This document shows, one piece after another, positions 12,849 to 51,218 of a DNA stretch of 64,000 nt. The notes under the pieces are model-generated. The model made no database searches. It was not told the origin of the DNA and saw only the letters and a program-made list of their open reading frames with translations. How positions within the stretch are numbered: position 1 is the stretch's first letter; each line of letters opens with the position of its first letter. Location: NCBI GenBank assembly GCA_018396865.1, contig JAGTRB010000005.1:1-64000 (forward strand). The letters are read 5' to 3'. The position numbers were made by a program, and so were the translations under genes. The DNA is from Candidatus Bathyarchaeota archaeon. GTDB lineage: Archaea; Thermoproteota; Bathyarchaeia; TCS64.

Positions 12849-13553
12849 ATGGGAGAAGTTCCCCAAAGGGGTTTCCCTAGTGATCGGTTGTGGGAGGAGA
12901 AGGAGCCGGAGAAGGGTTTAGGGAGAAGGGACGAGAGAGAGCTCAGGAACAGGTTCTTCTCAAAGCTGATCAGGGCCGGGATTATAATAAATACACACAT
13001 AATCTCGGAGTACTCCGATAAATACCTGGAGCTTGCGAGGAGGTTCAGGGAATTAGATCGAGAGGATGCCAAGTGGATGGCATCGGCGGAGATCGATGCC
13101 CTAGCTGATAAGATAACCTCCCAGCTGAGCCGAATAGTTAGGAGGCCTAGAGCCCCAGTCTCAGTCGCCCCGCCCCCGAGGGTTGCTGGGAGGCCCTCCC
13201 CCGTCTGGGCCCCCCCATACAGGTATAAGGGGGAGGATGAGGATTCGGGGAAGGCCATAATAGACTTCTCCCCTGAGGAGTTCGCATTATACAAGGATTT
13301 CTTGATCAGGAAGGGGTTCAAACCTGAACGAATAGAGAAGATCTCTCCATACAGTAGAAATCTTCCATACTATAAGGAATTCTACGAGTGGATGACATCA
13401 AGAGAGATAGAGCCTAGATTAAAAAATATGTTTGAAAAATGGCTCTGGAGAGCTAGAGGACTAAGAATCCAAGATTATAATGATCTACCGGAAGAACTTA
13501 AAAAGATAATAAGAGCAGCTTTCAGAGAATTCCATAAAATAATAGAGCCCTAA
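12849..13553 (+). CDS. Hypothetical protein (234 aa)
   Basis: Preferred over the low-complexity antisense ORF 12833-13321. The C-terminal third is encoded by AT-rich DNA. Confidence 0.45.
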   Translation: MGEVPQRGFPSDRLWEEKEPEKGLGRRDERELRNRFFSKLIRAGIIINTHIISEYSDKYLELARRFRELDREDAKWMASAEIDALADKITSQLSRIVRRPRAPVSVAPPPRVAGRPSPVWAPPYRYKGEDEDSGKAIIDFSPEEFALYKDFLIRKGFKPERIEKISPYSRNLPYYKEFYEWMTSREIEPRLKNMFEKWLWRARGLRIQDYNDLPEELKKIIRAAFREFHKIIEP

Positions 13554-13721
13554 ACATAAACATTTAAAAATAGAGATATATCAAAGTTTTCATGCAAATA
13601 TTATCTATAGTTAAATATCCCTAGAAAGTCAATGAGGGAGATCCTGAATTCTAAAGATCAATAATTTACAGGAATTTTACAGAAAAATTTAAATATAGAA
13701 TTTATCTTTATATTTAATGTA

Positions 13722-13913
13722 ATGAAAACTGTATATAGACTTGGAGTCATAGTCTTCCTCCTTCTCGGAATCTCAACCTTTATACCTGCTCCGGCAAGCA
13801 AACCATCCCTACTCGGGTATTATGCTCACTGCTCTATAACCCCAGTAAGCACGATAATTCTCTTGGTCATAGCTGGACTGATATACTGGCTCGGAAAGAG
13901 AAGAGAAAAATAA
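13722..13913 (+). CDS. Hypothetical small two-TM membrane protein (63 aa)
   Basis: Two hydrophobic helices and a C-terminal KRREK. Sits in an AT-rich intergenic region; weak call. Confidence 0.3.
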   Translation: MKTVYRLGVIVFLLLGISTFIPAPASKPSLLGYYAHCSITPVSTIILLVIAGLIYWLGKRREK

Positions 13914-13971
13914 ATTTTTTTAAGATATGTTTTATATTTTCTAATTTTTTCTCAACGCTTCATTTAAGCTT

Positions 13972-15744
13972 TCAGACATAGTAGTATCTTCCCTCCCTCT
14001 TCTGCTCACGGTCGAGCTTCGAGCCTTCCTTGTTTACCCTAGGCCTCTTCGTGTCCTGGTCTCTCCTGAAGGTTACCCCCATCTCCTTGAGGAAGGTGTT
14101 CATCCCCTCCTCGAGTCCCTGGGGCCTTCCACCCAGCCCCCTGAGGCCGCTCTGCCCAGTGAATACCATCAGCCTGTCGGCTATGAAGTCCTGGGCCACT
14201 ATGTCGTGCTCCACGACTATCGCTGTGGAGCCGTTCATCTTGGTTATCCTCCTTATGGCCCGGGCCATGGAGAGGCGCTCCTCGACATCTAGGTAGGCGC
14301 TAGGCTCGTCTAAGAGGTAGATATCTGCCTCTGTGGAGAGGCATCTGGCTATGGCCACGCGCTGGAGTTCCCCCCCGCTCAGGTCCTCCACACCCCTCTC
14401 CAGAAGCCTCTTTAGGTTTAGGGGCTCAATGACCTCCGCAGCGAACCAGTTCTCCTCATATCTCCTCCCCGCAGCCCCCTTCAGAATGTCTTCAACCCTC
14501 CCCTCCATCGTGCCCGTGAGGTACTGAGGCTTATAGCTCATCTTCACCTCTCCGCAGATAACCGAGCCATAATCCGGGGTCTCCAGCCCTGCAAGCATCT
14601 TCACGAAGGTCGTCTTTCCAACCCCGTTCTTCCCCAGCACCCCTATCACCTCTCCCTCCCCTATCTCCCCAGGTTCGACGTTGAGGGTGAAATTCCCGTA
14701 GGATTTCCTCAGCTCAGACCACCTCAGCAGGGGCCTCGATCTGGCCGGGGGCTGCGTTGGAGGCTTCACGTGGAAGGCTATGGGGGCCTCCCTGAAGCGG
14801 ATGTTCTCGTCAGGTATGTAGCCCCTGATGTAGATGTTTATTCCCTCCCTAACCCCATGAACCTTCGAGACTATCCCGTAGACGCCCGGCTCGCCGTAGA
14901 AGAGGAATATGTCGTCTGAGAGGTAATCTAGAACAGCTAGATCATGCTCCGCGACGAGTACCATCTTCCCCTCCAATGTTAGGGTCCTGATAACCTTGGC
15001 CGCGTTCATCCGCTGGTAGATGTCCAAGTGGCTTGAGGGCTCGTCGAAGAGGTACACATCGGCCTCCCTGCAGGCTGCAGCCGCTATGGCCACTCGTTGA
15101 AGCTCACCTCCGCTGAGGACGTCGAAGCTCCTCTCTAGGAGCCCCTCTAGCTCAAGGGCCTCAACCATCACCTTGAGGGCTCCCCTCTCGTCGAGCCTGC
15201 TGAGGACCTCCCCGACCCTTCCAGAGACGGCCTTAGGGATGAGGTCAACGTACTGGGGCTTATACACCGCCCTCATCCTCTTCTCGTATATATCCATGAG
15301 ATAATCGTGGAGGGGGAGCCCTGCGAAGCTCCTCAATATCTCATCCCTGCTTGGGGGGTTTGAGAATGATCCTAGGTTAGGAGTAACCTCTCCAGAGAGG
15401 ATCCTCAATGCCAGGGTCTTCCCCATCCCGTTTCTTCCAAGGAGGCCCACAACCGCACCTCTCCTGGGTGTGGGGAGCCTGTATAGGGCGAAGGTGTTGG
15501 GGCCGAACCTATGGATCAGGTCGGAGCCCAGCTCGTCGGGGAGGTTCACAACCTTCAGGGCCTGGAAGGGGCATTTTCTGACGCATATGCCGCAGCCGCT
15601 GCAGAGGGGCTCGGCCACGTAGGCCCTACCCCCCTCCACCCTTATAGCCTCCCTCCTGCTCCGGACCATGGGGCAGAATCGGACGCAGACCATGTCGCAC
15701 TTATCAGGCCTGCATCTCTCCTCCTCGACTACAGCGACCCTCAA
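13972..15744 (-). CDS. abcE1: ABCE1 (RNase L inhibitor / ribosome recycling factor): 2x[4Fe-4S] plus twin ABC ATPase
   Basis: N-terminal CRPDKCDMVCVRFCP...CSGCGICVRKCP ferredoxin motifs, followed by two Walker A/B ABC cassettes with LSGGELQRVAIA signatures. Confidence 0.95.
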   Translation of the reverse strand: MRVAVVEEERCRPDKCDMVCVRFCPMVRSRREAIRVEGGRAYVAEPLCSGCGICVRKCPFQALKVVNLPDELGSDLIHRFGPNTFALYRLPTPRRGAVVGLLGRNGMGKTLALRILSGEVTPNLGSFSNPPSRDEILRSFAGLPLHDYLMDIYEKRMRAVYKPQYVDLIPKAVSGRVGEVLSRLDERGALKVMVEALELEGLLERSFDVLSGGELQRVAIAAAACREADVYLFDEPSSHLDIYQRMNAAKVIRTLTLEGKMVLVAEHDLAVLDYLSDDIFLFYGEPGVYGIVSKVHGVREGINIYIRGYIPDENIRFREAPIAFHVKPPTQPPARSRPLLRWSELRKSYGNFTLNVEPGEIGEGEVIGVLGKNGVGKTTFVKMLAGLETPDYGSVICGEVKMSYKPQYLTGTMEGRVEDILKGAAGRRYEENWFAAEVIEPLNLKRLLERGVEDLSGGELQRVAIARCLSTEADIYLLDEPSAYLDVEERLSMARAIRRITKMNGSTAIVVEHDIVAQDFIADRLMVFTGQSGLRGLGGRPQGLEEGMNTFLKEMGVTFRRDQDTKRPRVNKEGSKLDREQKREGRYYYV

Positions 15745-15927: not shown

Positions 15928-16449
15928 TTAAACCTTTTTTGGAAATATGAAGAGTTCCGAAGTTTTTCTTTCACCGTGAATCATCCTCCTCATCTCTATG
16001 CCCTCAACCTCCGCCAACACGATCTCCACATTCACCCATGTTATGCATCCCTCCGTCAGATGGCCGCCAAACACCATGACCTCGCCATCCACGACCTTTG
16101 AGACGCATATATGGGCGTGAATAAAGGACCCACCATCCCCCCTCGCGATGGTTCCAGAGGCCGAGAGTATCTCGAGGGGCCCCTTAACCTCCTTATATAG
16201 CCTCTCAGCATCGGTCACGGGCAGTTGCTCCGGGAAGCGTGCCACATTCCTCAGAATAGCCCTCCTGAGGCTCCCTATTATGGAGAGGATGAAACCCCCC
16301 TCTATCCCCTCATCCTCAACCATCTTCTTCAGGGCCAGTAATAGGTCGTGCCCTGGCTCGATCTTCCCCACAAGCACCCTCTTGATCCTGCAATTCCCAG
16401 ACTCAAAGGTCCTCTCTAGAGACATCTCGAAATCTCTCGCAGATTCCAT
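15928..16449 (-). CDS. PPC/DUF296-domain protein
   Basis: Central ILSASGTI...HAHICV pattern of the PPC domain. Confidence 0.5.
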   Translation of the reverse strand: MESARDFEMSLERTFESGNCRIKRVLVGKIEPGHDLLLALKKMVEDEGIEGGFILSIIGSLRRAILRNVARFPEQLPVTDAERLYKEVKGPLEILSASGTIARGDGGSFIHAHICVSKVVDGEVMVFGGHLTEGCITWVNVEIVLAEVEGIEMRRMIHGERKTSELFIFPKKV

Positions 16450-16515
16450 AAATAATGTTTCCGGGCCTCCTTGGAAGCCTTCGAGAGCGTTAAATCATCC
16501 GGTATCCGTTAGATC

Positions 16516-17298
16516 TTGAGATCGATGTCTCCTCCAAAGGCGGTTGCCGTGGTAGGCTTCAAGGGGGCTGGAAAGACGAGGGTTGTCGAGGCCCTAGTCC
16601 GAGAGCTCTCTCGACGAGGCTATCGGGTTGGAACGTTGAAACATGCTTCTGGTGAGCATCCCCTAGATACCCCTGGAAAGGATACATATCGGCATATGGA
16701 GGCAGGCTCATACTCAACAGCTATCCTGACCTCCAAGGGCTCCGCTGTCTATCTCAACCACCCCGTAGACTTGAGGGAGATCATACCCCTCCTTGGACCG
16801 GTTGACTTCATTATCTTGGAGGGTTTCAAATCCCTAGATATGGTAGCCCGAATAATAGTGCCCAAAGCCCCGGGGGATATAGAGCCCTTATCTAACGGCT
16901 TGGAGATAGCGGTTGTCCCCCCATCGGGTGTAGAGGCACCCCTATACGAGAAAGATATACCTGTATTCCCGATAAGCGGGATAGGAGAACTCGTTGACCT
17001 GATCTTGGGAAAGGCTTTCCCGATCCTCCCAGGATTGGACTGCGGCTCCTGCGGCTATGAGGGCTGTAAAGCCCTTGCCAAGGCGATCCTAGCGGGTAAA
17101 GCTACGGCGGAGAGATGCACGGCTCTGTTTGGTGGAGGGGTTAGGCTGAAGGTTGATGGGAAAACAATACCGTTGAACCCCTTTGTAAGGAGCTTCATGG
17201 GGAATGTTGTTCTGGGCATGGTGAGAACCCTAAAGGGGGTTGAGAGGCCGAAGGGGATCGAGATATCCGTGGATGTGGGGGAGTTGGAGGATGGATGA
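16516..17298 (+). CDS. mobB: MobB-like P-loop protein (molybdopterin-guanine dinucleotide biosynthesis adapter) fused to a 4-Cys putative Fe-S domain
   Basis: VAVVGFKGAGKT Walker A plus LKHASGEH, then C-terminal CGSCGYEGCKALAKAILAGKATAERC, which resembles the CdhE/RnfC-type FeS domain. Confidence 0.7.
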   Translation: MRSMSPPKAVAVVGFKGAGKTRVVEALVRELSRRGYRVGTLKHASGEHPLDTPGKDTYRHMEAGSYSTAILTSKGSAVYLNHPVDLREIIPLLGPVDFIILEGFKSLDMVARIIVPKAPGDIEPLSNGLEIAVVPPSGVEAPLYEKDIPVFPISGIGELVDLILGKAFPILPGLDCGSCGYEGCKALAKAILAGKATAERCTALFGGGVRLKVDGKTIPLNPFVRSFMGNVVLGMVRTLKGVERPKGIEISVDVGELEDG

Positions 17299-18013
17299 GC
17301 CTATAAGGGTGGTAGTAGACAGCCTAGAGGCCTCCGCACATGATGAGGTCGTTAGCTATCTTAGGCTCGCTGGATGCGAGGTTGAGGTGAGAAGGCTTCC
17401 AGTATGCGACTTCGTAGTCTCGGACAGGTGTGGGGTTGAGAGGAAGGATGTGGATGACTTCCTCGGAAGCCTCAAAGATGGACGCCTCTTCAGCCAGGCG
17501 AAGGAGATGGCCTCCACCTATGAGAGGCCAATACTGGTGTTGGAGGGGCACCTACCAAGGGCCCTAAAGCACACAAGGGTCAGATCCTCATCCGTCTACG
17601 GCGCCTTGGCGAGCCTAGCCCTAGACTTCGGCTTCTCCATAATCCCAACGGATAATCTCGATTCGACCTCGATGCTCATCCATAGACTAGCCTACAGAGA
17701 GCAGGTGAGAGAGAAGCGCCCTATCCAGCTGAGGGAGATTAAGAGGAGGGTTCCCCTCCAGGAGCAGCAGATCTTCCTCTTGTCAGGTATACCAAAGATA
17801 GGGAGAACCCTAGCCGAGGAGCTCCTAAACCATTTCGGGACTCCCTTAAGGGTTTTCGAGGAGTTCGGGAGGGCTGAGGTGGAGACCTCCAAGAGCGGGA
17901 AGACAAAAAGGATAATCGGACCTATAGGAGATGTAAGAGGAATAGGGCCATCCATCGTCGAGGGTGCTAAGAGGCTCCTGACAACCCCATACGACAACCC
18001 TAGCCTTATTTAA
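17291..18013 (+). CDS. xpf: Short archaeal XPF/ERCC4-type structure-specific nuclease with C-terminal (HhH)2
   Basis: ERCC4 nuclease core (VVDSLEASAHDEV...VCDFVVSDRCGVERKDVDDFLGS) and C-terminal LLSGIPKIGRTLAEELLNHFG. The ATG at 17291 overlaps the mobB stop by 8 bp. Confidence 0.85.
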   Translation: MDEPIRVVVDSLEASAHDEVVSYLRLAGCEVEVRRLPVCDFVVSDRCGVERKDVDDFLGSLKDGRLFSQAKEMASTYERPILVLEGHLPRALKHTRVRSSSVYGALASLALDFGFSIIPTDNLDSTSMLIHRLAYREQVREKRPIQLREIKRRVPLQEQQIFLLSGIPKIGRTLAEELLNHFGTPLRVFEEFGRAEVETSKSGKTKRIIGPIGDVRGIGPSIVEGAKRLLTTPYDNPSLI

Positions 18014-18064
18014 AGTCGAACCAAAGAATAAGGTGTAAGCTATTAAATTGAGCATATTAATGTC

Positions 18065-18507
18065 CTACTTACACCGACTTAACCATTCTGCTATATATCT
18101 GGAGAATATCTCAAAATCTGATATCTTTGTTTGTGGAAATTCGTAGACGAGGTCTATATTTATGGATGCATACTCTTGGACGAGGAGATTTCGGAATCCT
18201 ATCATTGAAGCCATTACAATTTCAAAATTCTCCGGGATTATGCCGGCCTCCGCCAGGATGCTTAGGATATCTCCGTAGCTTTCAGGCCTTTAAGTTGGAG
18301 CTGAGATGATCTCATTGCCGATATCTAGATGCACTCGATGGAAACCTGAAGATACCTTTCAGCTGCTCCACTAATTATAAAATCTGCTTTGAAATCTTTC
18401 AAAGAGGTTTTTCGAATATCTTTAAAATATTTTATACACTGTTTAAGTTTACTTAATTTTGTCGTTATTAATTTTTTATCTATTTCAGAATTTGCTTCAT
18501 CATACAT
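18065..18507 (-). pseudogene. Disrupted HEPN (DUF86/HepT-like) toxin gene: in-frame TAG, frameshift, and R-x4-6-H degraded to Q
   Basis: ...AERYLQVSIECI, then TAG, then IGNEIIS; a frameshift, then ...IVMASMIGFRNLLVQEYASINIDLVYEF, which is the DUF86 C-terminal motif with His replaced by Gln. AT-rich DNA. Confidence 0.65.
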
Positions 18508-18546
18508 TCATCATACCTCTCTATGGCTCTTCTAAAATCCAAATAT

Positions 18547-18903
18547 TCACAATTTAACTATTATAGATTTCGCCTCAAAATTTATTCTTGATCCTTCACT
18601 TCTGCAATAAATAACTTCACCATTTTTTATTATCTGAAATTTCAGCAGAGTGGAGCGAGATTAATAATAGTTAAATCTACATTATTTCCAACCATTCCAG
18701 TAAGCATATCAACAATATGTAAATAATATTCAAGAAGTTTTTGGGACTTCAGAAAGTAAGATAGCTATGTCAATGTCACTTTGAGAAGTTTGACCTCCTC
18801 TTAAATAGGATGCAAAAAGATAGGCAACTAAAACACTTTCCTCATTTTCGAATAGCTTCCTAAGCTTTTTTATAACCTCTTCCAGCATATTACATTCAAC
18901 CAT
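18547..18903 (-). pseudogene. Disrupted minimal nucleotidyltransferase (MNT) antitoxin gene with two frameshifts
   Basis: Reverse-strand translation gives MVECNMLEEVIKKLRKLFENEESVLVAYLFASYLRGGQTSQSDIDIAIL, the GS...SDIDIAI NTase motif. The reading then continues only after two frame changes (LEYYLHIVDMLTGMVGNNVDLTIINL... / ...KFQIIKNGEVIYCRSEGSRINFEAKSIIV). Confidence 0.6.
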
Positions 18904-18966
18904 AAGAGAGCTTCATATATTTAACTTCAGCCGCTTTCATGAAGAATAGCCTTTTTCAGATGAGTC

Positions 18967-19728
18967 CTAGAAGATTAGAGATAGGCATGTCAGGGCGCCC
19001 TCACACTTCTCAAACTCGGTCATGGATAGGGGGATCACCTCAAACCCAGCCTCCCTAACAATCTCATGAGTTTTAGGGTAACCATCCGGCATTAGAACCG
19101 TCTCCCCTATGGTTAGGGTGTTAGCAGCGTACGCCTCTTCATCTGGAACTGTTAAAACCCTGAACCCCTCAAGCACTGGATTGTGGGCGTAGGACCTTGT
19201 AGCAATCATCATTCCCTCTCCTAGATATGTCACATAGCTCTTCAAATGAACAATCTTCGGATCTATTATGGTGTCAACACGAACCTCGAGCCACTCCCTC
19301 ATCTGGTCAACTCCCTCCACATTGGTTCGCTCAGTGACCCCGCTGATCAGCCGGTCCTCAAGGTGAATAACATCCCCTCCCTCCACTGTGGCCGGGGGAG
19401 TAGCCCTCTTAACCCTCAGATAACCCTTAAGAAACTCCTCCACCGCCTCTTCCTCGCCCCTCCTGCTCTCCCTAGCCATCCTGCAGATAAGCGCCCTATC
19501 CCCATGTATGACCGCGTTATCCTCAACGAAGCAGGAATCGGGTAGTAGATCATCTCTAGGAAGATGGATCACCTCAAGCCCGAGCTCGCTCAGAGCCCTA
19601 CAATATTTCCTGTGCTGCTCCCGGGCAAGCTTAAGATCGATCATATGTCTAAGGGGATGAGAGGATATGCATCTCCCATAACTATTCCCGGGCTCCCTAA
19701 CCAACGCACGCCTGAAGGTCAAATTCAA
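18967..19728 (-). CDS. Dimethylarginine dimethylaminohydrolase (DDAH)-like amidinotransferase-superfamily enzyme
   Basis: Overall DDAH-like sequence, with the C-terminal catalytic Cys context (EKCEGALTCLSLIF). Confidence 0.7.
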   Translation of the reverse strand: MNLTFRRALVREPGNSYGRCISSHPLRHMIDLKLAREQHRKYCRALSELGLEVIHLPRDDLLPDSCFVEDNAVIHGDRALICRMARESRRGEEEAVEEFLKGYLRVKRATPPATVEGGDVIHLEDRLISGVTERTNVEGVDQMREWLEVRVDTIIDPKIVHLKSYVTYLGEGMMIATRSYAHNPVLEGFRVLTVPDEEAYAANTLTIGETVLMPDGYPKTHEIVREAGFEVIPLSMTEFEKCEGALTCLSLIF

Positions 19729-19908
19729 ACCCTCAGATGAAAAGACACTTCCACCATATTAAAACTAGGATGAGCAAGGCGTTTTAGATGCACTTTCGGG
19801 GAACCTCCATCGATACCATATGTGCTTTCACTTGAGGTTTTTTTAAATACAGGTTAAAAAGTCGCCATTGTTATATCCAATTGATGTTTGATATTGGAAA
19901 GGATTTGA

Positions 19909-19983
19909 GGGCCCGTAGCCGAGCTTGGATAAGGCACCGGCCTCCGGAGCCGGAGAACATGGGTTCGAGTCCCATCGGGCCCG
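19909..19983 (+). tRNA. tRNA-Arg (anticodon CCG)
   Basis: Acceptor GGGCCCG/CGGGCCC, anticodon stem ccggc/gccgg with loop cuCCGga, T-arm gggttcgagtccc. CCA is encoded at 19984-19986. Confidence 0.85.
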
Positions 19984-19996
19984 CCATTTCATTAGT

Positions 19997-20623
19997 TCAA
20001 TAAAATTTATAATCCCTCTCTCTTGAATTTGAGAACTGGATTACCATACATGTTGGCTTAGGAGGATAATAAGTACAATATGCGTCTATTGGCATTATAT
20101 TACCAAAATTATACACATCACGTGTTGTTCCAGAAACTAGTGTTGAAGTGATTTCACCTAACTTACATTCGCCGGCATGCATAGTAAATTCGGTCGGACA
20201 TATATAAACTGTCCAGTCAAAAGATGCACCAGAGGATAACAAACATGTTGGCCCACAATTACCATTATTAAAACCACATTCATAGTTTACACAGTTTCCA
20301 AATGCGCAAGCCTTACATTGATTGTTCTCACAATAACAGCTAGAAGCTGTGCCAGCACATGGCTTACATTCATCATTAGAGCAATAGCAATTTGTGTTTG
20401 TACCGGCACAAGCTGAATTGTAGTCTTTGCATTCTCCAGAGATACATCTTTGACAGCCAGGACCGCAATCATTGTATCCGTCTTCCCTATTCACACAATT
20501 ACCATTATCATCACACAATTTGCATGTTCCACAACTAATGCCTGGAGCATTTAAACAAGTGCCAAGACTACCACATTGTTTACATGTTTCCATCACATTG
20601 ATTACAATTATATATATCATCAT
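19997..20623 (-). CDS. Cysteine-rich secreted/membrane-anchored protein (~36 Cys) encoded in ~38% GC DNA
   Basis: The ORF extends to 20752; likely starts are M at 20623 (MMIYIIVINV signal-like) or 20593 (METCKQCG...). Repetitive CxxC/Cx(3-6)C spacing: CKQCGSLGTC, CGTCKLCDDNGNC, CYCSNDECKPCAGTASSCYCENNQCKAC. Its GC content is far below that of the host. Confidence 0.55.
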   Translation of the reverse strand: MMIYIIVINVMETCKQCGSLGTCLNAPGISCGTCKLCDDNGNCVNREDGYNDCGPGCQRCISGECKDYNSACAGTNTNCYCSNDECKPCAGTASSCYCENNQCKACAFGNCVNYECGFNNGNCGPTCLLSSGASFDWTVYICPTEFTMHAGECKLGEITSTLVSGTTRDVYNFGNIMPIDAYCTYYPPKPTCMVIQFSNSRERDYKFY

Positions 20624-20717
20624 ATATATAATTGTAATCGGGCTAAAGGGTATCGATGATGTATTTGTATGGAGGATTAGGAGAGTTTCATATAACTGGT
20701 TTGTTATGATAATAAAA

Positions 20718-21164
20718 TCAATATGGAAAATCTGAAACATGATATACTTCAATTCTCGGATTTCGAGACTTCACTTTATCAATGAAATCTTTCTTATCCA
20801 AAGAAACTAACATCGAATTATTGTTTAATGCAACTTTAAGATATATTGCGTCTATAGCATAGATGTCATATTCTGAGCATAGGGGGTATGCAGATATACA
20901 AAAAGCCTTGTCACAGTTGACTAAAAGTCTTGGATCGATCATAAGATCAAGCAATTTTTTAGCCTCATCTGCGGCGTCCTTTCCAACCCTCCTCGCTAAG
21001 GTCCCGCAGACCTCCTGGTAGATTATGCTTGGCTCAGTCAAGATGAGGCTATCTGGCACCTTGAGTAATATTTCAAGGCATTTCTCGCTATATATCTCAT
21101 CAGCCTTTAAGGCGGCTAGTAGGATATTAGAATCAAGGGTCAATAACCGACTATTAGGCCTCAT
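20718..21164 (-). CDS. vapC: PIN-domain toxin (VapC)
   Basis: N-terminal LTLDSNILLAAL (first acidic residue), internal D/E positions, and C-terminal SLDKKDF. The internal ATG at 21164 overlaps the upstream vapB by 11 nt. Confidence 0.8.
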   Translation of the reverse strand: MRPNSRLLTLDSNILLAALKADEIYSEKCLEILLKVPDSLILTEPSIIYQEVCGTLARRVGKDAADEAKKLLDLMIDPRLLVNCDKAFCISAYPLCSEYDIYAIDAIYLKVALNNNSMLVSLDKKDFIDKVKSRNPRIEVYHVSDFPY

Positions 21165-21435
21165 GTTTCCTAGATCTTCTCTCCTCCTCGAGCACGGTTG
21201 GGGGGCCAACCCACCTTCTTGAGACAGTCTCCCTGAGCCCTAGAAATCCTTGGATTCCCTTCCTCATCTCCCCCATTCTCTCCTCGCTTAGAATTATCAC
21301 ATCTTTGGAAGAGACAAGCTTAGAGAGGAGTTCGGCCCAGGTCCTACACCCCAACTCCACCTTTAGCCTTTTAAGCTCCTTAAGGACATCTTCGGGCAAG
21401 TTTTTCACGAGTATTGTTGCCAGGCTCTTCACCAT
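21154..21435 (-). CDS. vapB: VapB-like antitoxin (putative DNA-binding N-terminus)
   Basis: Small ORF immediately upstream of, and overlapping, the PIN gene. The N-terminus LVKNLPEDVLKELKRLKVELGCRTWAELLSKL is RHH/CopG-like. Confidence 0.65.
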   Translation of the reverse strand: MVKSLATILVKNLPEDVLKELKRLKVELGCRTWAELLSKLVSSKDVIILSEERMGEMRKGIQGFLGLRETVSRRWVGPPTVLEEERRSRKHEA

Positions 21436-21454: not shown

Positions 21455-21610
21455 AATATAAAATTTATCGAAATAACTTACCCTTCCCTAGATCGTTCCT
21501 CCCTCCAAACACGACATACTTCAATATTTGGATATAAGACGGCGAACGTCCTTCTCCAACTCAATATTTATAGTCTATAATTATTAATTTTATATAGCGC
21601 TTAATTTTAA

Positions 21611-24600
21611 TTATCTTTTTATGTTTATATCTCCTTCTTGGATGATTAGGTTTCCCTCTCTGAGTAAACCTCCAAGGATCTTCTCTAACTCCTCCTTGAT
21701 GCTCCTCGTGAGCTTCTTGAATCCGAATAATCGGGCCGTCTCCTTGATTAGTGCCTCTCTTCCCACTCCTATAGAATGGCCCGCTAGTAGGGTGATGGCG
21801 GCCCTCAACTCTTCTGGAGGTATGAACCTCAATGGCCTGAAGGATTCCTCTAGACCATCGGATGGGACTCTTATCTTCACCTCCATCGGCCACCTAGCCC
21901 AGAGGAAGTCACCCTTTATCACGAGGCTGCCCTTCCTATGAAGCCCCCTCGCCTCCTCCATGAAGGCATCCTTCAACTCATCCGAGAGCTTAGCGAGACC
22001 CAAAGCCCTTTTTATGCGGATGTATGCATGCTCGAGGTGGATGGGCCCATCCCTTTCCACTAGGGTAGGGAGCAGCTCCCTAACCCTCTCACGATATTGT
22101 TGGACCAACTCCCCCTTATCTTGGGTTTTCCCCTTTCCGGCGATACGCCTAGCTTTGAGCCTTGTTGGCCGGTATGTCTCAACCCCCGGCAGACTAGATC
22201 CTGCTGCCTCCAAAACCCTTACCTGGATGCTTCTTTTAGGGGGGGATATACTCGGCGGTGTGTTGGGCTTACCGACAATCCTTCCACGTGGCTGTAGAGA
22301 CCTCTCGATGGCTGACTTCAGCCTTTTAACCTCGGTCTCCCTCCTTTGAACCCAGTCCGGGGACCAGATCCTGTGTATCCTCCATCCCAGCCCTTCCAGT
22401 ATCTGCTGCCTCAGTCGGTCTCTGTCCCTAGCTGTGTACGCGGAGCGGTAGTTCTCTCCATCCAGTAGGATGCCTAGAATGAACCTATCGGGGTTCTTGG
22501 GGTCTTTGACCCCTATGTCAACCTTGAATGAGCTTGGCCCAACGCCTACTACGGCCTCATAGCCCATCCTACCGAGCTCAGATAAGATGTCCTCCTCCAG
22601 TGGATTTGAGGGGCCCTCCTCCCCTTTCTCCGCCTGCTGGTAGGCTTCGGATAGCTTCTCAGCATAAAGGAGGTAGCCGTGTAGGTGGTGAACCCCTGGG
22701 GCCTTTGTGGCCTCAACCTCAATATCTGAGGCCTTTATTGAGCTCACCAGGATGACCCTCTCCCTGGCCCTGGTTATAGCGACATTTAGTCTCCTCTCAC
22801 CCCCAGGCTTGTTCAGGGGCCCGAAGTTTAGCGTCATGCGGCCATTATGATCATAGCCGTAGCCGACGCTGAAGATTATCACGTCGCGCTCATCGCCCAT
22901 CACGTTCTCGAGGTTCTTCACAAAGAATCCCTGGAGGCGGTCCTCGACGAAGAAGGCCTCATATTCAGGGTGATCCCTGAGCCTTCGCTCTATAGCATCT
23001 TGAATAGTGTTCATCTGGCTTATGTTGAATGTTATGACTCCTAGAGTCTTGTCAGGGAAGTTTTTGAAGTGCTCGAAGACGAGGTCCGCTACCACCTCGG
23101 CCTCTCTGGGATTGTTCCTGGCTCCACCCCGGTCATAGATTCCATCTGGAACATAGATGAACTTGACGCCGAGGCTCGGGTCCCTCCTCCCCGGATGGGG
23201 GAATAGGTTCAGCCTATTCTCGTAGAACCTCTCGTTTGAGAAGTTTATCAGGGAGTCATGTCTGCTTCTATAATGCCATCTCAACATATTCACAGGCAAC
23301 CCTATTGATAGGCACTCATCCAAGACGCTCTCGAATACATCGAAATCGTAGTCGACAGTCTCATCCCAGTCGAAGTCCTCGTCCAAAGAGTACTGGAAGA
23401 ATGGGGTCGGAGGGAGCTGCTTGTTGTCGCCAGCCACGATCAGCTGTTCCCCCCTGTAGATGGCTCCCACCGCGTCCTCCGTGCATATCTGGGAGGCCTC
23501 ATCGAAGATCACCAGGTCGAAGCGGAGCTTTGGAGAGAGGAACTGGCTCACAGATATGGGGCTCATGAGGAGGCAGGGTTTAAGCCTCTTGAGGAGGGTC
23601 GGGATCCTCTCGAAGAGGTTTCGGATAGGCATGTGTCGGCTCTTCTTCAGGGCCTCCCTCCTCAGTATGGCTATCTCGGAGTCCGGGACCTGGAGGAAGA
23701 CCCCCTGGGGCTTCTGCTCGTTGGCTCTATCGATGACGCGGGAGGCCGAGAGGGCTATGAACCTCTGGTCTAGATCCTGAAACTCCCTGATCAGCTGTTC
23801 ATGCCTCTGCCCCCTGAAGCCTCCTAGGGTAGGCTCCTCTTGGAAGACGAGGTCGATGAGGCCGCTGTACATGGACTTATGGAACAGATCTAGCAGCCTT
23901 GAGGCCTCAGGCCTAAGCTCCATGAGCCTCTTCAGGAATCCTCCGAGCCCATTCCCCTCCAGGTCCGCCGTGATCCTCTTGAAATCTACCCAGGCTTGGA
24001 GTTCATCCAACCTGGAGCGTAGCTCCGAGACCTTCAGCCTGATCTCCTCAAGGGTTAGGGCGCTCCTATCCTTATCCCATAGGGGTTGAGTGAAGCCGTC
24101 TTCGAGGGTTTTCAGCAGGTCGTAGAGCCTATCCAGCCTTGCGCCTATCTCAGGATCAGGAGGTGTGGGGAACCCTCCATCCGAGACGTAGGCTATGAGG
24201 GGTTGTGGAGGCTCCCTTAGGATGCTTAATAGCCTCTTACACCAATCTATATCCTCAAGTATAGAGGGCCAATCCGTCGTTATTCCTGTATATCGCCTAC
24301 CGAAGATGGCTTTAATATCCTCAGACTCTGCCTCAGCAGCCTCCTCAAAGGCTCGGAGGGCCTCCACCTCCCTCAAGTCGGATACGAGCTCCATCAGGGA
24401 GTGGGGGTGGTCCGAGATCCTCAAGGATAATGCTGGAGTGCATACCTCATTCAGCGAGGTGAGCCTTCTAGCCAGCTCAGATGACCATTCTGCCACCAAG
24501 TCAAGGGGACTCTTTGTAAGAGGCTTACCCGTGTTTGGAAGCTTCCCATAAGGTAGGAGCCCCCTCAGCTTTAGGGTTCTCTGCCTCCACTCGCTAAGGG

Positions 24601-27166
24601 CTGCTCTGAGCCTCCTCCCAGTGAGTAAAAGCTCCTCTGAGGGCCTACTTCCAGCTGTGAGGTTGAGGACTACCCCCGGAGGGATCTGTCTTCGTGTTAT
24701 CTTGAGGGCCTTCCAGGCGTTCTTCAAGGCCTCCCTGGCTGAGTTGAAGTCGGGGGTGGGATCCCTGTAATATGACTTCATAACCCTCCTGAGGTCTTCT
24801 CGACGGGAGGCTATCTCCTGCTCAAGGGTCCTCAGCTCCTTAACGGCCTTTAGATCCTCTAAAATCCTGCTCAGAGGCTCCCGGCTTCTGCTCATCCTTG
24901 TGAGGAGGCTCCTGAACCTGTGGTACTGGGGTCTAAGGTATCTGAATGGGGAGCTACCCGGCCCCTCAAGCCAATCTATTATTGGTTGTGGATCTAGGTT
25001 CAGAAACCCCTCGTGATATCTTTCCATCAGGTCCTTTTTCAGGCCATCCCTTCGGAGATATAACCCCTCAGCCTCCCTGATCATCCTCGTCACCTCTTTC
25101 AGGCTTTTTATGTCAAGCCACTCAGCCTCTGGCCTGTTTTTAGCCTCGCAGATGCTTGTAAGCTCGGCCATTCTAACTATCTTCTCTATCGAGTCGATCT
25201 CGACCTGGAGGCCGAATATCCCCGCTATCTCAGCTGCGTGGGATTTCCAATCCTCAATCCATCCGGGCAGGGCCTCCACGTATTGGGCCAACTCTTCATT
25301 AAGCCTTGTGAGGGCTACATCGTCTTCTGTGTTCGGGGGTAATAGCTCCTTTACCCTCGCCCATCTCCTCTCAACCTCATCCGCGACCCCCCTCGGAAGC
25401 CTGAATATACTTGGGCTGTATAGCTTCATCAGCCTATCCCTAGACCTCCAATACTCAGCGTAGCCCTCAAGCCTCTTCAGGGCCTCCTCTTCTATCCCTT
25501 TCAGTCCTCCCCCCTCAAGCCACCTTCTTGGAGGCCTCGGAGAGCTCGAAACTAGGGTGGAGATCTCCTTCAACCTCTCAAACTCCCCAAGGATGCTGGG
25601 GATGCCTAGACCCAGCATCTCGCTGTAACCTTTGATGCCCTCCAGCTCCTCAACAGCCTCGAGGATCTGCCCGAGGAGGGTCGCCCATCTGGAGCGGGAT
25701 TCAGAGGTGAAATCCTCCTCCCTGCATCCCCTCCATGGAAACCTCCCATCTAATGCGATATACCACACATTTGAGAGGTCTCTCACCAATTTCTCCAGTT
25801 CTTGGAGCTTCCGGGGGGTGAGGGATTTGAGTCCCTGATACTCCGACGGGATGAATGGAGCATCCTCAAGCCTGGCAAGCCTCCCGAGGAGTTCGAAGGC
25901 TGAGAGCCCGAGGGGGGGCCTCTCCATGTGCAGGGCCCTCACATACCTGTTGAGGAGGTCCCTCCTCTCCTTTAGCCTCTCCAGCTCCTCCTCGGAAAGC
26001 CTAGCCCTTGGCTTCAGGTGCTCGTTCAGTGCTCTATTGAGTTCCGCGACCACCTCCCTCTTATTCGCCTTATGGCTGTGGAGCTCTAGGCAGAAGTCGT
26101 CGAGCCCCCTCTCTTTTAGCCTGTTGTAGACCACCTCTAGCGCAGCCATCTTCTCGCTTACGAATAGGACGCTCCTCCCAGCGGCTATGAACTCGGATAT
26201 GATGTTGGCAATCGTCTGGCTCTTCCCCGTGCCTGGGGGGCCGTGGATGACGAAGGACTGCCCCCTCAAAGCGTACTGGATGCAGAGCTGCTGGCTGCTG
26301 TCTGCGTCGAGAACTTGGAACATCCTCTTGGGCTCAAGTATCTCATCAAGCTCATCCTCCTTAGGTAGGGGATCCTTAACCAGTCTGGGGTTTGGCACAC
26401 CAGCTAGGGCGGATATGATTTGGTTCTTAGCTATCTCCTCGGCGTTCTCGGATAGGTCTTGATACATCACCAGCTTGTAAAAAGAGAATAGCCCAATCCC
26501 TACCTCCCCCTCCACCCTCCATCCCAGCTCCCCGCAAACGGCTGAAACTTCTTGAAGGTAGGTGAGGACATCCACATCCTCGAAGTCCGGGAGGGGTGGA
26601 AGCTCGAACTTGTAGTCATACCTCAGTTTGAGGGTTAAGGCAGGATTCAGGACCACCTCCTCCTCCACGGGGGGAACCTCTATTCTATAGGGTGAGCGGG
26701 GGTTATCCCTCCTCAACTCTATTGGAACTAGGAGTATTGGAGATCTTACTGCCTCCCCCGACCCGGCCTCCCTCCAGTTGAGCATCCCAAAGGTTATGTA
26801 GAGGATCCTGACGCCCCTCTCCCTATATTCAGATGTGGACCGCCTATAGAGACTCCTCAGGATCCGCTCAATCCATTGAGGGTCATCTCCATGGGGCACG
26901 AGTTGGGTCTTCCCGGGGCGCATGGACCCTGAAGGACCGGTCCATCCATCCTTTGGAGGCTGCCAGATCTCCCACCCCTTCCCTTTGACAACTAGCCTCT
27001 CGAAGATGGTCTTGAGGTCTGGAGCCAATATCTCGATATAGGAGCTCTTTGTTGGCGCGAAGTAGATCAGGCGGTTCCGCCTGCTCAGGTCGATGAGCCT
27101 CTGCTTCCACAGCTGGATTCTTTCCATTACCTTGGAAGTGGAGGCCTCATCCAAATCGATCAGCAA
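21611..27166 (-). CDS. 1851-aa DUF4011-like N-domain / Upf1-like SF1 helicase with ~800-aa insert / Vsr(DUF559)-like endonuclease / DUF3320-like C-terminus
   Basis: Walker A VIHGPPGTGKSQT. Motif II VIFDEASQ roughly 800 aa later. Then LRWHYRSRH, GVITFN, and motif VI LNVAITRARERVILVSS. Then FKVDIGVKD...FILGILLDGENYRS...RDRDRLRQQILEGLGWRIHRIWSPDW (PD-(D/E)xK/Vsr-like). The C-terminus is ...GDFLWARWP...FGFKKLT. The N-terminal region (LIYFAPT...ILYITFGMLNW) is DUF4011-like. The start may be the M at 27127. Confidence 0.85.
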   Translation of the reverse strand: MLIDLDEASTSKVMERIQLWKQRLIDLSRRNRLIYFAPTKSSYIEILAPDLKTIFERLVVKGKGWEIWQPPKDGWTGPSGSMRPGKTQLVPHGDDPQWIERILRSLYRRSTSEYRERGVRILYITFGMLNWREAGSGEAVRSPILLVPIELRRDNPRSPYRIEVPPVEEEVVLNPALTLKLRYDYKFELPPLPDFEDVDVLTYLQEVSAVCGELGWRVEGEVGIGLFSFYKLVMYQDLSENAEEIAKNQIISALAGVPNPRLVKDPLPKEDELDEILEPKRMFQVLDADSSQQLCIQYALRGQSFVIHGPPGTGKSQTIANIISEFIAAGRSVLFVSEKMAALEVVYNRLKERGLDDFCLELHSHKANKREVVAELNRALNEHLKPRARLSEEELERLKERRDLLNRYVRALHMERPPLGLSAFELLGRLARLEDAPFIPSEYQGLKSLTPRKLQELEKLVRDLSNVWYIALDGRFPWRGCREEDFTSESRSRWATLLGQILEAVEELEGIKGYSEMLGLGIPSILGEFERLKEISTLVSSSPRPPRRWLEGGGLKGIEEEALKRLEGYAEYWRSRDRLMKLYSPSIFRLPRGVADEVERRWARVKELLPPNTEDDVALTRLNEELAQYVEALPGWIEDWKSHAAEIAGIFGLQVEIDSIEKIVRMAELTSICEAKNRPEAEWLDIKSLKEVTRMIREAEGLYLRRDGLKKDLMERYHEGFLNLDPQPIIDWLEGPGSSPFRYLRPQYHRFRSLLTRMSRSREPLSRILEDLKAVKELRTLEQEIASRREDLRRVMKSYYRDPTPDFNSAREALKNAWKALKITRRQIPPGVVLNLTAGSRPSEELLLTGRRLRAALSEWRQRTLKLRGLLPYGKLPNTGKPLTKSPLDLVAEWSSELARRLTSLNEVCTPALSLRISDHPHSLMELVSDLREVEALRAFEEAAEAESEDIKAIFGRRYTGITTDWPSILEDIDWCKRLLSILREPPQPLIAYVSDGGFPTPPDPEIGARLDRLYDLLKTLEDGFTQPLWDKDRSALTLEEIRLKVSELRSRLDELQAWVDFKRITADLEGNGLGGFLKRLMELRPEASRLLDLFHKSMYSGLIDLVFQEEPTLGGFRGQRHEQLIREFQDLDQRFIALSASRVIDRANEQKPQGVFLQVPDSEIAILRREALKKSRHMPIRNLFERIPTLLKRLKPCLLMSPISVSQFLSPKLRFDLVIFDEASQICTEDAVGAIYRGEQLIVAGDNKQLPPTPFFQYSLDEDFDWDETVDYDFDVFESVLDECLSIGLPVNMLRWHYRSRHDSLINFSNERFYENRLNLFPHPGRRDPSLGVKFIYVPDGIYDRGGARNNPREAEVVADLVFEHFKNFPDKTLGVITFNISQMNTIQDAIERRLRDHPEYEAFFVEDRLQGFFVKNLENVMGDERDVIIFSVGYGYDHNGRMTLNFGPLNKPGGERRLNVAITRARERVILVSSIKASDIEVEATKAPGVHHLHGYLLYAEKLSEAYQQAEKGEEGPSNPLEEDILSELGRMGYEAVVGVGPSSFKVDIGVKDPKNPDRFILGILLDGENYRSAYTARDRDRLRQQILEGLGWRIHRIWSPDWVQRRETEVKRLKSAIERSLQPRGRIVGKPNTPPSISPPKRSIQVRVLEAAGSSLPGVETYRPTRLKARRIAGKGKTQDKGELVQQYRERVRELLPTLVERDGPIHLEHAYIRIKRALGLAKLSDELKDAFMEEARGLHRKGSLVIKGDFLWARWPMEVKIRVPSDGLEESFRPLRFIPPEELRAAITLLAGHSIGVGREALIKETARLFGFKKLTRSIKEELEKILGGLLREGNLIIQEGDINIKR

Positions 27167-37909: not shown

Positions 37910-38296
37910 TTATTCAATTCCCCATTTTTTGGTTACCTTAACTAATATAAAGACCACAAAGGCTACAAGTAGGAAGGTGATCAAGGCTCCTATGAAGTGC
38001 CCTATGCGGAACGGTCCCAGCACAAAGGCCTCCCATTGAATACCCGGCAGAATTAGCGTTATTATGGGCATGATCAGGTCGTTAACTAGTGCCTGTACAA
38101 GTGTGCCCAGATATAAGCCCAGGATGAACGCGACGGCCATTCCCATAACCTTGTACTTTGAGATGAAGTCCAGAAACTCGTTCCAGAGGCCTTTTGGTGG
38201 AGGTGGGGGTGGAGGTGCGGGTTTAGGCTCTAGTAAAGCCTTTATATCCTTTAGAACCTCCAGTATCTCCTCATCTCTAGTTCTTGATCTAGACAT
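37910..38296 (-). CDS. mscL: Large-conductance mechanosensitive channel MscL-like protein with Pro-rich N-terminal extension
   Basis: KVMGMAVAFILGLYLGTLVQALVNDLIMPIITLILPG...ALITFLLVAFVVFILVK follows the MscL TM1-loop-TM2 pattern. It is preceded by PAPPPPPPPKG. Confidence 0.65.
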   Translation of the reverse strand: MSRSRTRDEEILEVLKDIKALLEPKPAPPPPPPPKGLWNEFLDFISKYKVMGMAVAFILGLYLGTLVQALVNDLIMPIITLILPGIQWEAFVLGPFRIGHFIGALITFLLVAFVVFILVKVTKKWGIE

Positions 38297-38551
38297 ACCC
38301 TTTCCATATCTAAGAAGAAGTAAGCTTATTTAATCTTTACGAGCATAAGCAGCCCAACACGGTTATGTGAGAGATTCAAGAAACATGAATCGACTAAATG
38401 ATCCTCATAAATTTTTAATTTTCCAGAAGATAGCGTGGGGTTTTAATCATTTTTGTCAACACTCCGCCCTTTAAACTAAAAATGATACCTTGTATCCCAC
38501 GTCCAACTCAATATTTATATAATGCCTCTTTCCTAAAATGCTGACACAGCT

Positions 38552-39391
38552 ATGATTGACATATTTGGCATTTTAGGAAAGATGCTCGAAAACGTTATCT
38601 ATGCCATTCCGGCCATTATCGCTGCTTTGATAGTGATATTGATAGGATACGCGGTCGGCTCTATAGTTGGCAGGGCTGTAAACAAGATCGTCGAAAAAAT
38701 CGGAATAGAAAAGACATTCGACCAAACTATTGCTGGCAAAGCCTTTAGGGCTTCTGGCATAGACCTCTCCAGTCTAATAGGGGGATTAGTCAAAGCCTTC
38801 ATTTTGATGTTATCCTTAATTATGGCGGTACAGATATTGAACATCCCAGGGATATTTGGCACTTACTTGATGAATCTAGCAGACTATCTTCCAAGACTTC
38901 TTGGAGGTATCTTGATAATATTATTAGGAACAGTGTTCGTCGACTTCCTCTCAACCTTTATTGGTAGGATGATCCGGCCGATGTTTCCAGCTGAGAAAAT
39001 TGAAATAGCAGATATGCTGAAGAACCTGCTTTTCATCGGGTTAATCGCCTTCGTTCTCCTGTTAGCACTCGATACTATGCTTCTTTCGGGTAGCACAGTT
39101 TATCCGCTGATACTCGGCTTTGTAGCGATTGGCGCAGGCATATCCTTGACAGATGGCCTAATAAAATCAATAACGGATGATCATCCTGAGTTCAGGGAGA
39201 TCGCGGGATATGCGAAATTTATGCTTTACAGCATTTTCCTAATGATAGGAGCAAGTGCAATATTCGCAACATACCCAGGCGTAACTGAAATTATAGCTAA
39301 TGCTTCATGGGCCTTTGCAATAGCTCTCGCAGTAATGCTAATACCCATTGCATATACTTTAATGAAAAAGATATCAAAGGAAACAAAATAA
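38552..39391 (+). CDS. Polytopic membrane protein, function unknown
   Basis: 6-7 TM helices. A possible resemblance to the conserved TM-helix repeat proteins of MscS-like families is a weak impression. Confidence 0.5.
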   Translation: MIDIFGILGKMLENVIYAIPAIIAALIVILIGYAVGSIVGRAVNKIVEKIGIEKTFDQTIAGKAFRASGIDLSSLIGGLVKAFILMLSLIMAVQILNIPGIFGTYLMNLADYLPRLLGGILIILLGTVFVDFLSTFIGRMIRPMFPAEKIEIADMLKNLLFIGLIAFVLLLALDTMLLSGSTVYPLILGFVAIGAGISLTDGLIKSITDDHPEFREIAGYAKFMLYSIFLMIGASAIFATYPGVTEIIANASWAFAIALAVMLIPIAYTLMKKISKETK

Positions 39392-39644
39392 GTCATGAAC
39401 AACTACCCTAAACCCATTTTTATAAGAGTATTTTTATATTTAATATTTTTCTCAATAATGGTTATTTATAGTTAAACTATAATGAGTAATGAAAAAAGGA
39501 AATTAAGATAATGGTAAGAAGGAGAAAAGTTTTTAAATACGAAGAACCCGATTAACAATCGGGTTTTCGATTCTGAAGAATAAAAACGAGAAAGGTAGGT
39601 TTTATAAAAAGGAGATGAGACCCTTTCATTAGTTCCTAGATCTT

Positions 39645-40049
39645 TCAGTATTCTACCTTTCTAGGAAGGCTCTTTGCTTGTTCAATCCAATTTTTGACTT
39701 GGTTGAGCGTGGGCGGTCTCCTTACAAGTTTTTTCTCATTGTTCACTTCAATTATCTTAGCATAGAGATTCTCGGGAACCCTTTTAGCTAGTTCAACCAC
39801 CGAATCCACACCGGCCTCCTCGAGGAGGTCTGAATATTCTTCACCCACCCCCTTGATCCTGAAAAGGTCTGCAAGGTTCACCCATTCGAGGATCAATTTT
39901 TCAGAGATACCGGTCTTCTCTGAGAGCTCCTTCCTCCCCTTTCTAGTTGCACCTGCGTTAAGCAGATCATCTGTGGTCTTTATACCGACTTCGAGAAGCT
40001 TATTAGCGTATACTGGTCCAATCCCCTCAATCTTCTCTATCTTTGCCAT
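39645..40049 (-). CDS. Helix-hairpin-helix protein (DUF4332-like)
   Basis: IEGIGPVYANKLLEVGIKTTDDLL and IKGVGEEYSDLLEEAGVDSVVELA are two HhH units. Confidence 0.6.
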   Translation of the reverse strand: MAKIEKIEGIGPVYANKLLEVGIKTTDDLLNAGATRKGRKELSEKTGISEKLILEWVNLADLFRIKGVGEEYSDLLEEAGVDSVVELAKRVPENLYAKIIEVNNEKKLVRRPPTLNQVKNWIEQAKSLPRKVEY

Positions 40050-51158: not shown

Positions 51159-51218
51159 TCTGACACCTCTAATATATTCACGGAACTCGATTTAAAGATC
51201 TTGAACTCTTCCGGAACC

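Follow-up and report, generated by a model that had tools for sequence, protein, structure and literature searches.

A cysteine-rich reading frame in a Bathyarchaeia genome is a deletion fusion of two strain-variable genes of foreign composition, and probably a decaying remnant

We have studied a cysteine-rich open reading frame (ORF) in a stretch of 64,000 nucleotides from a Candidatus Bathyarchaeota archaeon (contig JAGTRB010000005.1, positions 1 to 64,000), which we call the window. The ORF lies in a low-GC islet bounded by a tRNA-Arg gene on one side and a vapBC toxin-antitoxin pair on the other (Table 1). We find that it was formed by a deletion that joined the beginning of one cysteine-rich gene to the end of another, and that its first part carries a module belonging to an uncurated protein family.

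In its longest form the ORF shares 35 nt with the 3′ end of vapC, and comprises a cysteine-rich body preceded by an AT-rich leader. The conservative coding sequence (CDS) omits the leader, and homology to other members of the family reaches residues 3-4 of the 198 aa protein that it encodes. An earlier note, made from the letters of the DNA alone, had drawn attention to this ORF. The frame is real and all the peptides quoted there are present, although the number of cysteine residues is 28 rather than about 36. Cysteine nevertheless makes up 14% of the 198 aa form, while the runner-up among the 66 window ORFs of at least 150 aa has 3.5%; the enrichment is far above chance. The spacings between cysteines are mainly Cx2C, CxC and Cx4-6C, as had been noted. 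The protein contains 20 aromatic residues (12 Tyr, 7 Phe and 1 Trp) and a single histidine.

The base composition of the ORF is foreign to the host genome, as was also proposed in the earlier note. The GC content is 40% in the cysteine-rich core, 36% in the 3′ part of the ORF and 27% over the 159 nt that precede the ATG at 20593, compared with 52-55% in the flanking helicase and DDAH-like genes and ~54% in host genes.

Table 1. Coordinates of the features of the islet and its borders, in the window unless a contig is named
Feature	Position	Strand	Description
Cysteine-rich ORF, longest form	19997..20752	-	251 aa; TTG start at 20752, TGA stop at 19997-19999
Conservative CDS	20000..20593	-	ATG at 20593 (METCKQC...), 198 aa; holds 28 of 28 cysteines
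Conserved family module	20354..20545	-	Residues 17-80 of the 198 aa protein
Part derived from gene A	20239..20593	-	Residues 1-119; with the leader (20239-20752), the 5′ third of gene A
Part derived from gene B	19997..20236	-	Last 79 codons and stop; 4 Cys
Deletion junction	20237..20238	-	Only TA common to both parents; in frame, CGPTCLL|SSGASF
AT-rich leader	20594..20752	-	27% GC; 53 aa if translated, with hydrophobic peak at ITIIYMMIYIIVINVM
Perfect palindrome	20600..20639	.	GATTACAATTATATATAT-GATG-ATATATATAATTGTAATC, 18+4+18 bp
Gene C copies	L025 3162-4178; L023 11364-11545; L024 11346-11636	- (L025)	
tRNA-Arg (CCG)	19909..19986	+	3′ end 10 nt from ORF stop, convergent; fixed right-hand border of variable islet
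vapBC	20718..21435	-	RHH antitoxin 21154-21435, PIN toxin 20718-21209; directly upstream of ORF

The module was characterized by scanning 1.84 billion representative proteins with HMMER, using as query the protein P0001, which is 94-96% identical to that of the window in the module region. The scan gave 35 matches at E ≤ 1e-3, and 12 at E ≤ 1e-10. Among the matches were P0006 (4.6e-16), P0009 (2.0e-14) and P0010 (8.1e-14), and the window protein aligns to the same segments of these. Fourteen of the matches align to window residues ~17-80 with 40-59% identity over ~60-100 aa, and genome and metagenome contigs yielded 17 further family loci. The common motif is C-x2-C-x2-C-x4-5-C-[VI]N[RQ]xDGYNDCGxGCQRC[VI]SGxC[QK]DY[ND]xxC...CYCSxDxCxxC. 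In the family alignment (alignment A1) seven cysteines are invariant (C43, C47, C50, C55, C62, C71 and C76) and four more are at least 90% conserved (C21, C24, C27 and C33); all 11 are kept in the window protein. This part of the window belongs to an uncurated family of DGYNDCG-GCQRC cysteine-rich modules, of which P0006, P0009, P0010, L004 and L005 are other members.

The family is missing from the curated resources that we searched for it. The whole cysteine-rich protein had no match in Pfam or NCBIfam at E ≤ 0.1, nor in PHROGs or PADLOC; neither the module nor the C-terminal domain taken separately matched anything in Pfam at E ≤ 10, and searches of Protein Data Bank (PDB) sequences with the protein, the family profile or the C-terminal domain returned chance-level matches only. 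The earlier note had recognized no family, and these results agree with it. The window protein found no relatives as query against collections of genome and metagenome contigs, and there were none in IMG/VR scanned with alignment A1 or in a phage collection searched by tblastn. A word-index protein search with the family alignment gave two proteins; the index evidently misses this family.

The homologues derive from a metagenome-assembled genome of an uncultured archaeon, from Candidatus Nealsonbacteria (a bacterium of the candidate phyla radiation, CPR) and from unassigned metagenomic contigs. They are 200-1436 aa in length with 4.5-12.6% cysteine, their loci have a GC content of 35-48%, and in each of them the module lies within the chain, at positions 64-489. 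Of the 16 complete N-termini 15 have a basic n-region and then a hydrophobic core, as in a classical signal peptide or anchor, and so does gene B (see below). One protein that seemed to lack a signal, P0029, is the C-terminal part of a signal-peptide-bearing ORF broken by a run of Ns. Three of the ten homologues that were scanned for domains have PKD, fn3, PG_binding_1 or InlB B-repeat partners. With homologues that bear signal peptides and surface-type domains, the module can be seen as an uncatalogued extracellular unit. We infer that it forms a β-hairpin scaffold, cross-linked by disulfides or possibly by metal, that acts as a spacer or adhesion unit of surface proteins; DSSP applied to low-confidence AlphaFold2 (AF2) models of the window protein gives serial β-hairpins.

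The window product shares with these exported proteins its sequence identity, the 11 cysteines, the core motif and a similarly low GC content. It departs from them in that it is short, lacks a canonical export signal and carries the module close to its N terminus at residue 17, which results from truncation and fusion. The suggestion that the ORF encodes a modular secreted protein is thus correct as to modularity, cysteine content and the export of family members, but probably not for the window form itself, which is without a canonical signal.

How the fusion arose is revealed by related strains. Near-identical proteins from metagenome-assembled genomes carry the NCBI label 'Candidatus Bathyarchaeia archaeon'. 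Six near-identical Bathyarchaeia contigs cover the two sides of the locus, L001, L002, L023, L024 and L025 on the vapC side, and L006 and L022 on the tRNA side. Like the window, the contigs of the vapC side have the helicase, vapB, vapC, the leader and the METCK module. Contig L023 is 99.79% identical to the window from 30752 to 20237, with 22 mismatches in 10,516 nt, and then continues as ...LLIGDCPDDY... in a longer gene that we term gene A, which is intact in L023 (P0045, 440 aa) and in L024 (P0044, 434 aa). On the tRNA side the identity is 99.25% between L006 and window 16113-20238, and 98.0% between L022 and window 18461-20238. These two have the tRNA-Arg gene and the last 79 codons of the ORF in common with the window, and upstream of this a different cysteine-rich gene, gene B. 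At the junction the window reads ...ATGTTTGTTA|TCCTCTGG..., following L023 as far as TTA, and L022 and L006 from TA onward. The ORF is therefore a deletion fusion of the leader and 119 codons of gene A with 79 codons of gene B.

The relatives contain at least 2.5 kb that is missing from the strain of the window. In L023, L024 and L025 there is on the 3′ side of gene A a convergent gene, gene C, whose product has at least 338 aa, is rich in W, Y and F and gives no Pfam match; the 64 kb window lacks both gene C and the last two thirds of gene A. The C-terminal domain contributed by gene B has no detectable relatives in Pfam at E ≤ 10 or among PDB sequences. The complete fused ORF is found in this window alone. 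Its length is no evidence of selection: both parents were already open in that frame, and an in-frame junction would arise by accident one time in three. The possibility that the frame is an artefact of degraded DNA, which the earlier note had kept in mind, is thus borne out in part, insofar as the complete ORF is a deletion product confined to the window; the module is conserved with 11 invariant or near-invariant cysteines in distant homologues.

A different breakpoint at 20273, together with a 34 nt 'unique patch', was considered and rejected: L023 shows that an allelic cassette begins there, and the true junction is at 20237/8. Single-nucleotide polymorphisms (SNPs) near the apparent break are in 15-fold excess (8 in 344 nt compared with 15 in 10,136 nt). 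Both the excess and the apparent break at 20273 arise because this is the edge of the first of two variable cassettes in gene A. The alleles of gene A (L023 10001-11323 compared with L001 and L002) are virtually identical (>99%) outside these cassettes, which are ~45-50% divergent at nt ~470-760 and ~20% divergent at nt ~1081-1250. Such a pattern is what would be expected from recombinational cassette exchange, and the deletion breakpoint of the window falls inside the first cassette.

The C-terminal two thirds of gene A (P0001 residues 207-358), lost from the window, has about 20 metagenomic relatives of its own (P0003-P0036), containing W/Y-rich cysteine modules such as CGEWRYCGG..GGWLW..NFCCNDNWC. 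This part may be a second uncurated module, possibly binding carbohydrate.

Both parental genes have suffered inactivation in sister strains. A broken allele of gene A (ORFs of 194 and 251 aa, with the invariant C50 changed to Gly) is found in two independent assemblies, L002 and L025, and one family-conserved cysteine has been lost (C→F) in other alleles. Gene B is seen in two strains, L006 and L022, and is a pseudogene in each, with at least three frame breaks. At its start in L022 there is a TTTATATA box (TATA), an ATG and a signal peptide MKK(N)LFLITIIYSFLFLKSAFGG; the ATG is in frame with the signal peptide only if a run of A7 is read as A8. At L022 ~55-75 an A8 in place of A7 would restore MKKNLFLITIIYSFLFLKSAFGG, and this could be either a slippage-prone homopolymer or an inactivating mutation. 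All six related assemblies break within ~1 kb of the islet. The picture suggested by these sequences is of a dispensable islet of foreign composition, subject to recombinational mosaicism and repeated inactivation.

Does the leader provide the fused protein with an export signal? The earlier note had described the sequence MMIYIIVINV as signal-like. A hydrophobic segment does precede the module, with a Kyte-Doolittle peak of 2.06 over 19 residues immediately before it, but MMIYIIVINV is the translation of a 40 bp AT-rich palindrome, and it lacks the basic n-region of the signal peptides of the homologues. There are four candidate N-termini, with starts at 20752, 20740, 20623 and 20593, and none has a basic n-region and an early hydrophobic core. 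In the longer form of the N terminus the net charge is 0 or -1 and the hydrophobic peak lies 36-40 residues in. We conclude from the sequence that the ORF does not begin with a canonical signal peptide.

The palindrome is present in a single copy in the window, where 0.01 matches would be expected by chance, and is perfect in the window only. Five related contigs share one mismatch, ATA→AGA at 20616, that replaces Ile by Arg (MMRYIIV) and brings the hydropathy peak over 12 residues down from 2.64 to 1.89. The codon-position GC pattern of the leader is the reverse of that in the coding body. The reversed pattern, the low GC content and the Arg variants argue against translation of the leader. 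TATA-like runs within the palindrome lie at -38..-31 and -22..-15 relative to the ATG at 20593, upstream of which there is no Shine-Dalgarno sequence; together these fit a nearly leaderless transcript starting at METCK. As RNA the palindrome is predicted to form a hairpin with ΔG = -19.9 kcal/mol at 37°C and -5.4 at 70°C. It could be a promoter or operator, a terminator of vapBC, or the scar of a recombination event.

Taking these results together, we consider it probable that the ORF is an in-frame deletion fusion of foreign, strain-variable genes for cysteine-rich exported proteins, surviving as a decaying remnant. Genes A and B would have been acquired horizontally from donors of low GC content; the donor-like loci have 35-48% GC, compared with 36-40% for the ORF and 54% for host genes. 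In related strains genes A, C and B would be lined up in that order between vapC and tRNA-Arg, and a deletion of at least 2.5 kb, using 2 nt of microhomology, would then have fused gene A at codon 119 to the final 79 codons of gene B. Given that the window allele has no canonical export signal, retains a third of gene A and terminates in part of a pseudogene, it is most likely non-functional or vestigial, a non-essential product of ongoing decay in a dispensable, recombination-prone islet.

Several observations weigh against this interpretation, and a number of them favor the strongest alternative, that the fusion is a functional new allele created by module shuffling, in which the hydrophobic leader (from the TTG at 20752 or the ATG at 20740, coupled to vapC) acts as an uncleaved anchor for display at the surface. 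The window ORF is intact and in frame, and every conserved cysteine of the module has been kept while two sister alleles have lost some, so that the allele could still make a folded product. Upstream of METCK, in DNA of 27% GC, this frame runs through 59 codons without a stop, where the other frames have 7 and 3; by shuffling, P is ~0.04 for the 41 open leader codons that lie outside the overlap with vapC. Together with the start of the module the leader aligns weakly with the signal peptide and mature start of gene B, with ITIIY in common. At the protein level the local score is 43 compared with 24.8 ± 4.7 for shuffled sequences, none of 500 of which reach 43, while at the DNA level the similarity to the 5′ end of gene B is not above that of shuffles. 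PGAP and Prodigal both picked upstream starts, the hydropathy peak lies just before the module, and cassettes such as those of gene A are typical of exposed, diversifying proteins. The leader might then conceivably serve as an export anchor. Against the decay interpretation may also be set that the order A, C, B was pieced together from overlapping contigs of different strains, no contig spanning all three genes. The same applies to the structural prediction, in which AF2 run without a deep alignment gave predicted local distance difference test (pLDDT) scores of 39 (full protein) and 59 (core), and a Foldseek search with the low-confidence model gave a best PDB match at E = 1.2 with a template modelling (TM) score below 0.3, and none at E < 1.

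We nevertheless regard a functional allele as unlikely. The N terminus does not resemble that of 15 of the 16 homologues in its charge or in the placing of its hydrophobic peak, and Arg stands in the middle of the segment in five related alleles. The hydrophobic segment coincides with a palindrome in DNA of 27% GC and reversed codon-position GC. An in-frame junction is not improbable by accident, and gene B was already a pseudogene in the sister strains.

A broader form of the functional interpretation would make the islet a contingency locus that diversifies adhesin-like cysteine-rich proteins acquired from CPR or DPANN organisms, with the fused ORF as a working short variant. Cassette exchange in gene A and module fusion in the window allele would then both be driven by interactions with episymbionts or viruses. 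We think this rather improbable.

It is very improbable that the product is an intracellular metal-binding or redox protein (holding Zn, Fe-S or Cu), translated from METCK on a nearly leaderless mRNA whose promoter would be the TATA-like palindrome. The TATA-like TTATATAT at -38..-31 from the ATG at 20593, the lack of a Shine-Dalgarno sequence and the homology beginning at residue 3 are all consistent with it, and intracellular disulfides are common in Thermoproteota. By inspection, the first motif, C-x2-C-x2-C-x5-C, resembles the cluster motif of ferredoxins. However, the 4Fe-4S motif is CxxCxxCxxxCP; this string, the closest in the window protein, has no following Pro, and there is no Fer4 match. 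The protein also has dense CxC and CxxC like metallothioneins and zinc-ribbon or ferredoxin clusters, and metal binding of the metallothionein type had been one of the functions raised in the earlier note. A protein of 198 aa with 20 aromatic residues and one histidine is unlike a metallothionein, and no Fer4, metallothionein or zinc-ribbon match was obtained even at E ≤ 10. Every complete homologue is built for export, those known being exported multidomain proteins, and the number and spacing of cysteines are irregular outside the core.

An origin by misassembly seems hardly tenable. The two halves of the ORF match different public assemblies, and the breakage of six related assemblies within ~1 kb indicates heterogeneity in the population; these would be expected if the fused ORF were a chimera of two co-occurring strains that exists in no cell. 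However, the parents share 2 nt at the junction, far under the k-mer overlap used by an assembler. Such an assembler could not produce a join of this kind, and we therefore regard the junction as real. The sequence has no Ns, and on either side the window runs on unbroken for tens of kb.

Least probable of all is a role as a secreted toxin or bacteriocin, or as cargo of a virus or integrated element at the tRNA-Arg gene, acting with vapBC; a toxin, a bacteriocin-like factor and a viral remnant had been among the suggestions of the earlier note. The low-GC islet does adjoin a tRNA gene, with toxin-antitoxin modules on either side and a defense-type helicase upstream, and the C-terminal region of the ORF does vary between strains, but that variation is explained by the deletion rather than by exchange of a toxin domain; the tRNA gene 10 nt past the stop leaves no room for an immunity gene, and no downstream immunity, export or maturation gene is present; the homologues are large multidomain proteins of surface type; vapBC is 99.8% conserved between strains while the cysteine-rich genes vary; no relative was found in PHROGs, the phage collection, PADLOC or IMG/VR; and there is neither an att-like repeat of the tRNA-Arg sequence longer than 15 nt in the 64 kb nor an integrase ORF in 17-24 kb, the islet included.

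Proteins of a comparable kind have been described in other organisms. Anantharaman et al. (2016; PMC4736985) reported strain-variable cysteine-rich extracellular proteins in CPR bacteria and proposed that they have a role in attachment; in Peribacteria these have a mean length of ~1,650 aa and ~7% cysteine. The genes studied here resemble them in very high cysteine content, predicted export and a concentration of strain variation in such genes, and the present family has one member in a CPR genome. The window product is by contrast a fusion remnant of 198-251 aa in Bathyarchaeia, and the likeness is one of description, not of sequence comparison. Strain-variable cysteine-rich exported proteins of episymbiont-type organisms are thus already known; what is new is the presence of the module in a Bathyarchaeia genome. 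A literature search for cysteine-rich surface proteins of DPANN archaea gave nothing relevant.

The Myxococcus cysteine-rich repeat (TIGR02232 / Pfam DUF4215) is also a short extracellular repeat with at least six cysteines and strings such as C..CDDNGNC. It has a different cysteine framework, and in Pfam and NCBIfam neither the window protein nor the homologues scanned gave a hidden Markov model match to it (TIGR02232 / PF13948). By inspection, furin-like and EGF/laminin-type repeats and the variant surface proteins of Giardia have similar tandem Cx2C/Cx4-6C units like β-hairpins, export and mosaic alleles, but there is no significant match in sequence or fold to these eukaryotic CXXC-rich surface modules.

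For annotation, the ORF should not be labelled a toxin, a metallothionein or a viral gene, and its apparent signal peptide is not to be trusted. The ~60 aa module with its DGYNDCGxGCQRC core is missing from Pfam, NCBIfam, PHROGs and the PDB, and is a candidate for curation as a new domain. Within a single Bathyarchaeia population, strains that are 99.8% identical elsewhere differ sharply at the islet, in cassettes, frameshifts and the deletion fusion. It offers a compact case of the gain, diversification and decay of foreign surface-protein genes beside a tRNA gene and defense genes. If the genes are functional, they would be candidates for mediating contact between cells, or between cell and virus, in an uncultured archaeal lineage.

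The borders of the islet are better conserved than its contents. The toxin-antitoxin pair adjacent to the ORF was correctly recognized in the earlier note, with a PIN/VapC toxin and an RHH antitoxin directly upstream, and vapBC is kept in all the related contigs of the vapC side, forming the fixed left-hand border. A 27 nt direct repeat (81%; 20735-20761 and 21507-21533) was entertained as a trace of insertion of a vapBC cassette, and was dropped as a rough estimate placed it near chance. At the right-hand border a search of Rfam gave only the tRNA above threshold.

Beyond vapBC, an ORF at 21611-27166 on the minus strand encodes an 1851 aa helicase-nuclease with DUF4011, AAA_11, AAA_12 and MTES_1575 domains. 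PADLOC matches it to the candidate defense family PDC-S37 at 1391 bits, and to Hhe at E = 2.4e-164; by this match the cysteine-rich islet sits in a neighborhood of defense and toxin-antitoxin genes. On the other side of the tRNA gene, 18065-18903 on the minus strand (34% GC) contains a degraded MNT/HepT toxin-antitoxin pair, in which HepT is divided between two ORFs (18065-18214, 18325-18507) and 57 aa of the nucleotidyltransferase are left (18730-18903). L006 and L022 contain these fragments too.

Elsewhere in the window the GC content dips to 39-42% at ~13000-14000, 38000-40000 and 51000-52000. The ORFs in the first two of these dips are of ordinary membrane or unknown-function type, and are not cysteine-rich.

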